DNA of 40,889 bases from Elusimicrobiota bacterium (lineage in GTDB: Bacteria > Elusimicrobiota > UBA8919), in assembly GCA_043816185.1 (NCBI GenBank), contig JBDRIG010000050.1, positions 1-40,889 of the forward strand, written 5' to 3'. The position numbers and the translations under genes were made by a program. Of this stretch, positions 13,260 through 14,207 are shown piece by piece. The notes under the pieces were generated by a model that worked only from the letters and a program-made list of their open reading frames with translations, was not told the origin of the DNA and searched no databases. How positions within the stretch are numbered: the stretch's first letter is position 1; each line of letters opens with the position of its first letter.

Positions 13260-14207
13260 TCACTCCATATTTGTAATACCTATACTTTCATTCCACCATT
13301 TTTCAAACGGCGGTTTATTCGGAGTTTTCTTTATCTCGCTATATTGCCCTCTTGCTAATGTGTCCGTTGACGGCACATTAAAACAAGAACCAGCAGAGAT
13401 TAACCATCTGTCGTGAATAACCGACTTAATTTTGTTATCAGATATTACCCTTAATTCACATTTTACATTATTATTTTGGAACTCCTGCTTAAAATCTCTG
13501 AATGAACTTTTTAATTTATCGTCAACTTTGTCATCGGACATCAAAATTTTTATAACTTTTACTTTTTCAATGTCCACCGAATCGGCTAATAATTCCAGTC
13601 CAATCTTTGAAAAATATTTATCAACCCAATAAATGTGTTTTCTGCAAGACCTTATAATATCCTTAAAGTTTTTCTTGTTCGTGAACGGCTTTTCAGGAGA
13701 AATCAATATTGCTTCGGGTGTTGCCGACGGAATGAAATGTATTGCCCTAAATATCGTTTTGATTTTCTTGTCATGCTTTTCAACTTTTTGCTCAATCGCA
13801 TCTATTCTGTTAGTGAATTTTTTATTGGCGGAAACTATTCTTCTTACATTCACAAATACGCGTATAATGCCGATATTTACCTGAATTGCTCTGGGACTGT
13901 TCAATACGCTTGACAACATTGCAACACCATGCTCTGTAAAGGCGTAAGGATTGGCACGACGTAACCCACCCCAACTTGAAATCACAAATTGTGATTTCAA
14001 GTTTTTGAACTCTTCATTACTCAATTGAAACATAAAATCATCGGGAAATCGTTCTATATTTCTCTTTACAGCCTGAACCAATACGCGTGGCTCTACTCCA
14101 TAAAGTTTTGCCAAATCAACACTTATTATTACTTTTTGCCCTCTGATTAAAAATATTTTATTTTCTATCTGCGACGATGGAACACTTATAATTATATTTT
14201 TCATCAT
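13260..14207 (-). CDS. ORF6N-domain DNA-binding protein with C-terminal PLD-like domain (copy 1)
   Basis: [51 protein letters not shown]-terminal [14 protein letters not shown]; start moved to ATG 14207 overlapping the trpG stop. Confidence 0.9.

Follow-up and report, generated by a model that had tools for sequence, protein, structure and literature searches.

The 40,889-nucleotide stretch analysed here (the window; contig JBDRIG010000050.1 of the Elusimicrobiota assembly GCA_043816185.1) carries two paralogous ORF6N genes, each with a perfect palindrome inside its coding sequence. ORF6N gene 1 (13260-14207, minus strand; 315 aa from an ATG at 14207) lies between trpG and trpD, its start overlapping the trpG stop as ATGA, and encodes an ORF6N domain at the N-terminus, followed by a coiled-coil-like linker and, at the C-terminus, a domain without a Pfam family. 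ORF6N gene 2 (19919-20854, minus strand; 311 aa) lies between hisB and hisH. The two proteins are 57% identical (176/309), and both match the Pfam family ORF6N (PF10543) over model positions 1-86 of 86, with E-values of 3.7e-34 and 7.7e-35 and scores of 117.3 and 119.5 bits (cut-off 27.8).

Two palindromes at one protein position

Palindrome 1 (13973-14003; plus strand AACTTGAAATCACAA-A-TTGTGATTTCAAGTT) has 15-nt arms, 100% complementary, around a 1-nt spacer, and reads by codons on the sense (minus) strand AAC TTG AAA TCA CAA TTT GTG ATT TCA AGT T. Palindrome 2 (20607-20633; plus strand CTTGAGGTTTCAA-T-TTGAAACCTCAAG) has 13-nt arms, likewise 100% complementary around a 1-nt spacer, encodes (N)LRFQIETS(R) on the minus strand and occupies the same protein position as palindrome 1. 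It is the second unit of a 27-nt tandem duplication in gene 2 that had escaped earlier notice; the first unit (20634-20660), which encodes NLRCQIVTS, is an imperfect palindrome with 10 of 13 pairs and folds on the plus strand with 7+2 pairs. Between the paralogues, the arms differ by AA>GG and CA>TT. All four differences are compensated in the opposite arm and change four amino acids (K/R, S/F, V/E and I/T), while the central base changes a fifth (F/I). The positions and sequences of both perfect palindromes given in the original prediction, together with the four compensatory differences and their amino-acid consequences, proved correct.

Chance is ruled out as the origin of these palindromes. 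They are the two best of 33 inverted repeats detected in the window, where no other perfect one has arms of at least 13 nt. The 1,444,528-base genome contains 18 perfect palindromes (arm at least 11, loop at most 5) against 4, 4 and 4 in three shuffles, and palindrome 1 is the longest perfect palindrome in these 1.44 Mb. All three ORF6N genes of the genome have a palindrome, each among the genome's top seven. The third copy (contig 19:8763-9017; locus L003), with one in-frame TAA early in the domain and otherwise intact, carries an unrelated perfect 13-bp palindrome at the same place, GAACCGGTGGAAA-A-TTTCCACCGGTTC. As single-stranded DNA, palindrome 1 folds at -13.3 kcal/mol (z -6.2), a value equalled by none of 200 shuffles. 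Small genes resembling toxin-antitoxin components (PIN-like, RelE/ParE-like) surround the third copy.

A self-complementary block throughout the ORF6N family

ORF6N genes of many phyla carry, at one fixed place, a self-complementary block of 13-17 bp with compensatory changes and frozen synonymous sites. The palindrome first noticed in two paralogues is therefore real and much wider than that pair. ORF6N loci were drawn from 60 related genomes (29 of 61 genomes matched, the window's own included), from one genome per species across bacteria (the best 80 of 582 confirmed) and from viral contigs (the best 80 of 133). This first set gave 204 domain matches; 13 without anchor motifs were dropped, and the remaining 191 yielded 132 unique segments, each bounded by the FMFQL and FTE anchors. 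Each segment was scored by its best gapless palindrome with at most one mismatch and a loop of at most 7. The mean was 11.97 pairs (median 12.5, maximum 17), compared with 5.9 after synonymous-codon resampling with each gene's own usage and with 5.3 and 5.7 in same-length upstream and downstream stretches. A second, independent set, retrieved from metagenome and viral contigs by another query (166 matches, 14 without anchors, 84 new unique segments), gave 11.8 pairs against 6.0 in the control. Over both sets, most homologues keep the symmetry: 10 or more Watson-Crick pairs, with no more than two internal mismatches, are present in 203 of 216 unique segments.

The loci represent Desulfobacterota, Acidobacteriota, Planctomycetota, Verrucomicrobiota, Proteobacteria, Bacteroidota, Patescibacteria, Omnitrophota, Nitrospirota and other phyla. 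The palindrome is present in cultured Polaribacter septentrionalilitoris (16 pairs; L107) and on the Sulfuricurvum kujiense plasmid pSULKU03 (11 pairs), and four records matched in a cultured-phage collection. On two Segatella copri plasmids (2955 and 4140 bp; L373 and L374), whose only genes are rep and ORF6N, the ORF6N palindrome is the sole palindrome of at least 10 pairs. Within a subfamily, the palindrome sequence itself, beyond its pairing, is conserved across phyla; subfamilies A, B and C each have their own. Subfamily A has the conserved peptide L-[KR]-x-Q-[FI]-x-[TI]-S.

Constraint acts on nucleotides

The original prediction held that protein-level selection cannot explain the paired changes, and covariation, frozen synonymous sites and a change of reading frame all support this view. 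For covariation, 91 unique 45-nt blocks were aligned by protein register only, as a guard against circularity; 28 segments with a peptide score below 20 against the motif, among them a whole frame-shifted subfamily, were excluded. The Watson-Crick share is 76-100% at pairs 2-13 from the centre, about 66% at pairs 14-15 and mostly near background (13-29%) from pair 16 outward. Paired cells amount to 90.0%, compared with 78.7±0.5% in shuffled alignments and 24-43% when the partner is slid; none of 500 shuffles reaches the observed value, a zero that cannot be read as a probability because the sequences are related. Double changes occur in 12 of 15 pairs (153 cells against 47.5), and the covariation score is 0.320 against 0.126. 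Synonymous-codon controls retain about 6 pairs where the genes have a median of 12 or more. Compensated combinations include TCA/GTG, TCG/GCG, TGC/GGC and TTT/GAA, and a Leu TTG to Trp TGG replacement is matched by a synonymous Ser TCA to TCC change in the opposite arm. On a tree built without the segment, each of six pairs requires a minimum of 8-21 switches between Watson-Crick states, a count that depends on a weakly supported tree of a short domain.

Synonymous positions follow their partners. The third base of the Lys/Arg codon tracks the second base of the facing Ile/Thr codon: opposite C it is G in 48 cases and A in 19, and opposite T it is A in 21 and G in 2. The G+C content at third codon positions (GC3) of the ten block codons stays constant at 0.42, while GC3 elsewhere in the domain ranges from 0.29 to 0.73. 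In 38 genes with a GC3 of at least 0.5, the block uses Leu TTG in 36 of 36 cases, Gln CAA in 33 of 35, Phe TTT in 14 of 14 and Ile ATT in 16 of 17; elsewhere in the same 38 domains, these codons account for 22% (TTG), 33% (CAA), 44% (TTT) and 25% (ATT). Among 13 phage-like sequences of median 85% identity, synonymous codon differences amount to 22 of 718 within the block, compared with 2769 of 6773 elsewhere, that is, 0.031 against 0.409 per codon, a 13-fold suppression.

The same nucleotides are also read in two frames. A subfamily with the peptide E[VL]V[AT]NCD[HR][LF] carries GGTCRCAA-A-TTGYGACC, which is the subfamily A core displaced by one frame, and an A-type block read in the +2 frame translates as LEVTNCDLKLG. 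One member of this frame-shifted subfamily (L230) has a perfect TGCCAA/TTGGCA version with a quite different peptide, ELVPIWHQF. Covariation, frozen synonymous sites and two-frame reading together strongly support a constraint on the nucleic acid rather than on the peptide, to which the encoded peptide is largely subordinate. Since a frame-shifted peptide can take its place, the peptide is unlikely to set the specificity of the protein, a role that had been suggested for this segment. A by-product of the conserved subfamily A peptide, like chance, is excluded by same-peptide resampling (5.9 pairs against 12), partner-base tracking, covariation, independence from GC content and persistence of the palindrome with a different peptide in another frame.

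Strand symmetry of the element

The element looks like DNA rather than RNA. Internal mismatches comprise 42 G·T, 63 A·C and 132 others, so that G·T occurs at about its random share and there is no wobble excess. Facing Ile, where the synonymous site is free, the G needed for a G·U pair occurs in 2 of 23 cases, and it is avoided even in GC-rich genomes. A single-base centre of symmetry is present in 134 of 178 palindromes, even though in a hairpin the two innermost bases are unable to pair. At the centre, T (60 cases) and A (71) prevail, with 3 cases of C and none of G. The base toggles between complements: subfamily A has Phe or Ile at this codon, with almost no Leu and no Val, and subfamily B has Asn or Ile, with no Ser or Thr, although Ile/Val or Asn/Ser exchanges would be the conservative ones. 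The lack of a wobble excess, the symmetry up to the centre and the complement-toggling centre base argue for a strand-symmetric property of DNA over a role in a single RNA strand.

Three further ideas were tried and set aside. A frameshift stimulator is rejected, as no conserved slippery heptamer precedes the stem, which starts at once. An intrinsic terminator on the opposite strand is likewise rejected: the T-run that follows the stem in the AT-rich window is missing in GC-rich relatives. Finally, the loop triplets AAC/GTT, AAA/TTT, ATC/GAT and AAG/CTT do not serve as evidence of inversion, because single substitutions flanking a symmetric centre give the same pattern.

Concerted change of the two arms

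The arms also gain and lose sequence together. At one locus (L204), 3 nt were lost from both arms, leaving GAACTTATCACAA-A-TTGTGATAAGTTC. At another (L203; genome G060, contig 7:46800-47600), one ORF6N open reading frame (ORF) contains two perfect palindromes at a distance of 65 nt, with the peptides SLRFQFGTSN and SLRFQFETSN and a compensated difference between them (TTCCAA/TTGGAA against TTTCAA/TTGAAA). This duplication is independent of that in gene 2 of the window and similar in kind. Among candidate pseudogenes, which might separate selection from correction, L026 is intact, and L210 and L003 are too recent to tell the two apart; the decayed L210 copy retains a perfect 15-bp version.

Marks of the type left by template switching are present as patterns, namely strict complementarity, symmetric insertions and deletions, and inversion of the centre to its complement. 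Concerted evolution of the arms, most simply through fold-back template switching, is the best-supported account of these observations. The original prediction had offered either an operator held within the gene or a hairpin-templated process that diversifies the segment while restoring its symmetry. Of these two mechanisms, hairpin-templated restoration of symmetry fits best, given the lack of a wobble excess, the symmetric 3-nt deletions, the symmetric duplicated units and the toggling centre. Its diversifying part does not stand, since at synonymous sites the block ranks among the best-conserved stretches (0.031 against 0.409 differences per codon in one cluster).

Palindromes in RhuM/DinD and DUF1016/YhcG genes

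Other perfect palindromes of the window's genome led to genes of two further families, RhuM and DUF1016/YhcG, which together with ORF6N account for 5 of the 18. The RhuM palindrome (contig 82:17309-17333; peptide TVKKFLTVQ) lies in a gene matching PF13310 (E 4e-107), one of three RhuM copies on a single contig. Its centre is GAA-W-TTC. At the homologous place in 26 unique segments from 151 genomes of the phylum, the mean is 10.9 pairs against 6.0 in the control, and 24 of the 26 have at least 9 pairs. Compensated variants include AACTGTTCGGAA/TTCCGAACAGTT, AACTATTAGGAA/TTCCTAATAGTT and a 15-bp version, AGTGGTATGTCGGAA/TTCCGACATACCACT.

The DUF1016/YhcG palindrome (contig 59:8450-8476; peptide ILDALRQEL) lies in a gene matching PF17761 and PF06250 and directly precedes the LSWSHY motif. 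In 29 unique DUF1016 segments, the mean is 10.4 pairs against 5.8 in the control, with at least 9 pairs in 19 of them; examples are AAAACGTGACGCA/TGCGTCACGTTTT and AATTTTCCAGACA/TGTCTGGAAAATT. The centre of this palindrome is mostly C or G.

Both families are represented in Escherichia coli K-12. In MG1655, yhcG contains three units in tandem at nt 303-329, 338-372 and 375-413, with 12, 15 and 17 pairs and one mismatch each (L438 23130-23240). The dinD palindrome (nt 174-205; L439 17934-17965) has 14 pairs with one mismatch and contains GATC at its centre; its place is homologous to the RhuM site, and DinD resembles the RhuM N-domain. Across 75 kb of K-12 examined, ten palindromes reach 12 pairs, of which five are intergenic, three are in yhcG, one is in dinD and one is in waaO. 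The yhcG segment is present in 3973 E. coli genomes, and the number of units differs among strains: in O157:H7, the gene is 78 nt shorter and has a single perfect unit.

Profile comparison of ORF6N with the RhuM N-domain gave an E-value of 0.012 and a probability of 3.7%, with a colinear alignment in which the palindrome peptides are matched; this is suggestive of, at most, a distant relationship. DUF1016_N proved unrelated to either domain. With the families at most distantly related, the trait either evolved convergently or belongs to this class of genes in general.

Two further perfect 11-bp palindromes of the genome (contigs 8:3053-3079 and 94:4114-4140) lie in frames whose translations resemble a DNA methyltransferase (SPPY motif) and a methionyl-tRNA formyltransferase.

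Interpretation and alternative explanations

With moderate confidence, the block is interpreted here as a selected, strand-symmetric cis element at the DNA level, lodged in the codons of the ORF6N domain, as old as the family and held by purifying selection as nucleic acid. During replication, the block would fold back on itself as single-stranded DNA, which would keep its two arms complementary. Intramolecular template switching (quasi-palindrome correction), a process that occurs in E. coli, would then either undo a change in one arm or transfer it to the other. Such switching would produce the paired amino-acid-changing substitutions, the symmetric insertions and deletions and the flipping centre base. 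More tentatively, the block may persist because it acts on DNA in cis, either as a site of two-fold symmetry or as an extrudable hairpin or cruciform. Because it is inside the gene, the site cannot be separated from it by recombination; an inseparable cis-site would suit promoter-less genes that lodge in foreign operons, here trp and his, and the gene's own dimeric product would be the obvious candidate reader. Near-universal retention, a fixed position in each family, survival of a frame change and conservation of an imperfect version argue that more than mutation is at work.

Several observations weigh against this interpretation. Function, folding, binding and template switching in vivo are proposed from sequence patterns, most of which could also arise if the palindrome were maintained by mutation without any function, because template switching together with protein-level selection would likewise suppress synonymous change. 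Phylogenetically independent tests have little power: 2-4 independent pairs fall on supported branches of the tree, and nearly all are as expected (mean 0.0 opposite, 200 random pairings), with p values of at least 0.125. Pairs that are constant within lineages and wobble-like, namely a sense-strand T·G where Leu CTG faces Arg CGG in the 'ELV.NCDRF' subfamily, and an A·C at pair 7 in 19 of 91 blocks, may point to a strand-specific component. One phage-like cluster keeps two adjacent mismatches across sequences of median 85% identity; their persistence implies that correction is not always efficient, and conservation in this cluster looks more like that of a protein-binding site than that of a hairpin. 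Finally, matches to the cognate arm within ±1.5 kb, allowing at most two mismatches, number 31 against 21.8 for non-cognate arms, a slight excess.

A broader version of the selected cis element would extend it to a general design. ORF6N, DinD/RhuM and DUF1016/YhcG would then be 'hitch-hikers' in defence islands that code for DNA-binding proteins and carry a two-fold symmetric DNA site, inseparable from the gene, in the codons of their N-terminal domains, read by their dimeric product or by a structure-specific reader and providing regulation independent of the host operon; hairpin-templated correction would keep the arms symmetric and force coordinated amino-acid changes. This extension is speculative and rather unlikely to hold as a whole.

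The strongest competitor, though itself rather unlikely, is a self-perpetuating coding palindrome without function, in which template-switch correction outruns point mutation in a permissive surface segment and selection acts on the protein only. Strict Watson-Crick pairing without a wobble excess, symmetry to the centre with a base that flips to its complement, symmetric insertions and deletions, and duplicated units that are each palindromic are all in keeping with it, as is the same behaviour in unrelated families. One study (PMC8794818) reports that template switching both forms and preserves perfect hairpins, and variation of the yhcG units between E. coli strains, together with their role as rearrangement end-points, is as expected for unstable DNA. 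Under pure mutational maintenance, however, a palindrome once lost should not return, yet across deep divergence 10 or more pairs are still present in 203 of 216 segments. The place is also fixed in each family, the ORF6N, RhuM and DUF1016 genes supply 5 of the 18 perfect palindromes in the window's genome, and one cluster conserves an imperfect version base for base, which correction alone does not explain.

An intragenic operator, bound by the dimeric ORF6N protein in its own gene as a roadblock for autoregulation or as a travelling self-site, is unlikely. The gene does encode a DNA-binding domain followed by a coiled-coil-like segment, and the site has the expected two-fold symmetry to its centre; each subfamily (A, B and C) has its own sequence, conserved across phyla, and the imperfect version is conserved as such. 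The ORF6N palindrome is moreover the sole strong one on the two-gene plasmids, and for promoter-less genes in foreign operons no upstream operator is available. Free compensatory variation at six or more positions is nevertheless unexpected for a site read by one protein, and a specificity set by the peptide is hard to hold given its frame-shifted replacement. No clear additional cognate sites were found either in the ±1.5 kb around the gene or in the genome of the window, where the core is matched exactly only at the ORF6N gene and with one mismatch at five other places. A roadblock would also be polar on the downstream trpD and hisH.

Control of the translation, decay or processing of these potentially toxic genes by an RNA hairpin, whether of the mRNA or of an antisense transcript, is decidedly improbable. 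Palindrome 1 has a stable RNA fold (-17.7 kcal/mol, z -5.5), and RNAalifold, applied to 42 diverse 325-nt ORF6N stretches, finds the palindrome as the sole conserved helix, with double changes; the constant sense-strand U·G of one subfamily would also suit an RNA. Against this stand the 42 G·U among 237 internal mismatches, about a random share and fewer than the A·C, the avoidance of G opposite Ile, and pairing kept at positions unable to pair in a hairpin loop; a centre that toggles to its complement would be meaningless for one RNA strand. Rfam gave a single match at gathering score in the window, a tRNA, with none at the palindrome site, and a search of six loci at E-values up to 10 likewise returned nothing at that site.

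Still less probable is a recombination or insertion site, whether one used by a recombinase or transposase or one at which modules are shuffled between paralogues. Support comes from E. coli, where two independent rearrangements end in the third yhcG unit: in BL21(DE3), the gene ends within the right arm of this unit beside a transposase gene, and in strain F5656C1 the insertion sequence IS1 adjoins its left arm. Unit number varies between strains, and many DUF1016 relatives are homologous only from about residue 100 onward, which is the palindrome position. The arms covary, however, so that no single recognition sequence is kept, and a host would have no reason to conserve a site that invaders target. 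Neighbouring genes name no consistent recombinase either (137 Pfam families among 150 neighbours), and hairpin sites such as attC, IS200/IS605 ends and invertase sites are countered by the lack of a conserved recombinase beside 80 ORF6N loci.

Relation to known systems

Perfect inverted repeats in animal mitochondrial genomes resemble the ORF6N block in lying within functional coding genes, with both arms encoding conserved protein, and in preserving protein function together with a stringent secondary-structure element. They differ in being up to 284 bp long, numerous per genome and lineage-specific, whereas the ORF6N element is one block of 27-35 nt at a fixed place in a bacterial, phage and plasmid family and is kept across phyla. 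Hairpins reported to be formed and kept by template switching in DNA replication (PMC8794818) are comparable in that a single event copies one arm from the other, with the result that stems are perfect, double changes look compensatory and loops are inverted. That study deals with RNA genes and mutation hotspots and not with position-fixed protein-coding blocks of whole families; for ORF6N, the process is inferred from the patterns that it would leave.

Some functional sites lie inside the genes of the proteins that act on them, such as parS within parB/spo0J, the lambda origin in gene O and the pT181 origin in repC. The ORF6N block is likewise a symmetric or structured site within a gene, co-inherited with the protein that may act on it. 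These sites, unlike the ORF6N block, are conserved in sequence and do not covary, and their function and binding are demonstrated; membership of this group is not claimed for ORF6N. Rickettsia palindromic elements (RPEs), and units of the repetitive extragenic palindromic (REP) or miniature inverted-repeat transposable element (MITE) type, are multi-copy, sequence-related and inserted at many places. They show, as ORF6N does, that short palindromic DNA is tolerated within ORFs. The ORF6N core, by contrast, occurs once per gene, in homologous codons and with family-specific sequences, and has no other exact copy in the 1.44-Mb genome, which speaks against a multi-copy palindromic element of any of these kinds. 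Coding-region RNA hairpins of the type collected in Rfam share with ORF6N a single conserved, covarying helix that overlaps codons; the ORF6N block differs in matching no Rfam model, in not tolerating G·U and in behaving symmetrically on both strands.

A literature search, with most subscription journals outside its reach, returned no paper linking ORF6N, RhuM, DUF1016, yhcG or dinD to an intragenic palindrome. The evidence points to a previously undescribed DNA-level signal hidden within a gene. It would be a clear bacterial case of a nucleic-acid element that overrides the protein code over about ten codons, even through a change of reading frame, and a trait common to widespread gene families of phages, plasmids and defence islands. 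It bears on the alignment of these genes and on the interpretation of selection acting on them, on whether apparent compensatory evolution is read as selection or as templated mutation, and possibly on the control of promoter-less defence genes. Because dinD and yhcG of E. coli K-12 carry the same kind of element, folding in vivo, binding and self-correction are directly testable there.

Genomic context and the C-terminal domain

The two ORF6N genes of the window sit inside the trp (trpG/trpD; 12860-14207) and his (hisB/hisH) operons, on the operon strand. In the window's family, trpG and trpD are adjacent in three genomes, separated by ORF6N in two and separated by other small genes in three. 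Insertions at the trpG-trpD junction thereby recur, the small genes encoding a 163-aa protein or a membrane protease of the CPBP type. ORF6N genes are otherwise solitary: the 150 ORFs flanking 80 loci are mostly housekeeping genes. The closest named relatives of the full-length ORF6N protein come from Elusimicrobiota and neighbouring candidate phyla.

Both ORF6N proteins of the window match the PADLOC candidate defence family PDC-S05 (PDLC04869; E 5.1e-66 and 5.7e-66). A representative of this family with a RhuM domain, which is not the gene studied here, is reported in a preprint to lower the plating of T7 and T5 about 1000-fold (10.1101/2024.09.26.614923).

The C-terminal domain (about 150 aa; 13260-13760 in gene 1 and the same part of gene 2) matches no Pfam family and has 144 relatives in Elusimicrobiota, Omnitrophota, Firestonebacteria and other groups. 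Its invariant residues are H265-x-R267...S271...N277. In the ESM Atlas, it leads to unnamed clusters at 0.91 and to a phospholipase D (PLD)-like entry at 0.89; together with the invariant residues, this hints at a putative PLD-like phosphodiesterase. A sequence search of the PDB found no relative of the ORF6N protein.

Contigs from four sequencing runs that cover small shares of the stretch correspond to conserved parts of other ORF6N paralogues; some end with other palindromes, one of them from an RNA library that possibly contains DNA. These contigs carry neither read-level variation nor RNA ends and do not span the whole gene. A tRNA gene lies at 3277-3352 of the window, on the minus strand.

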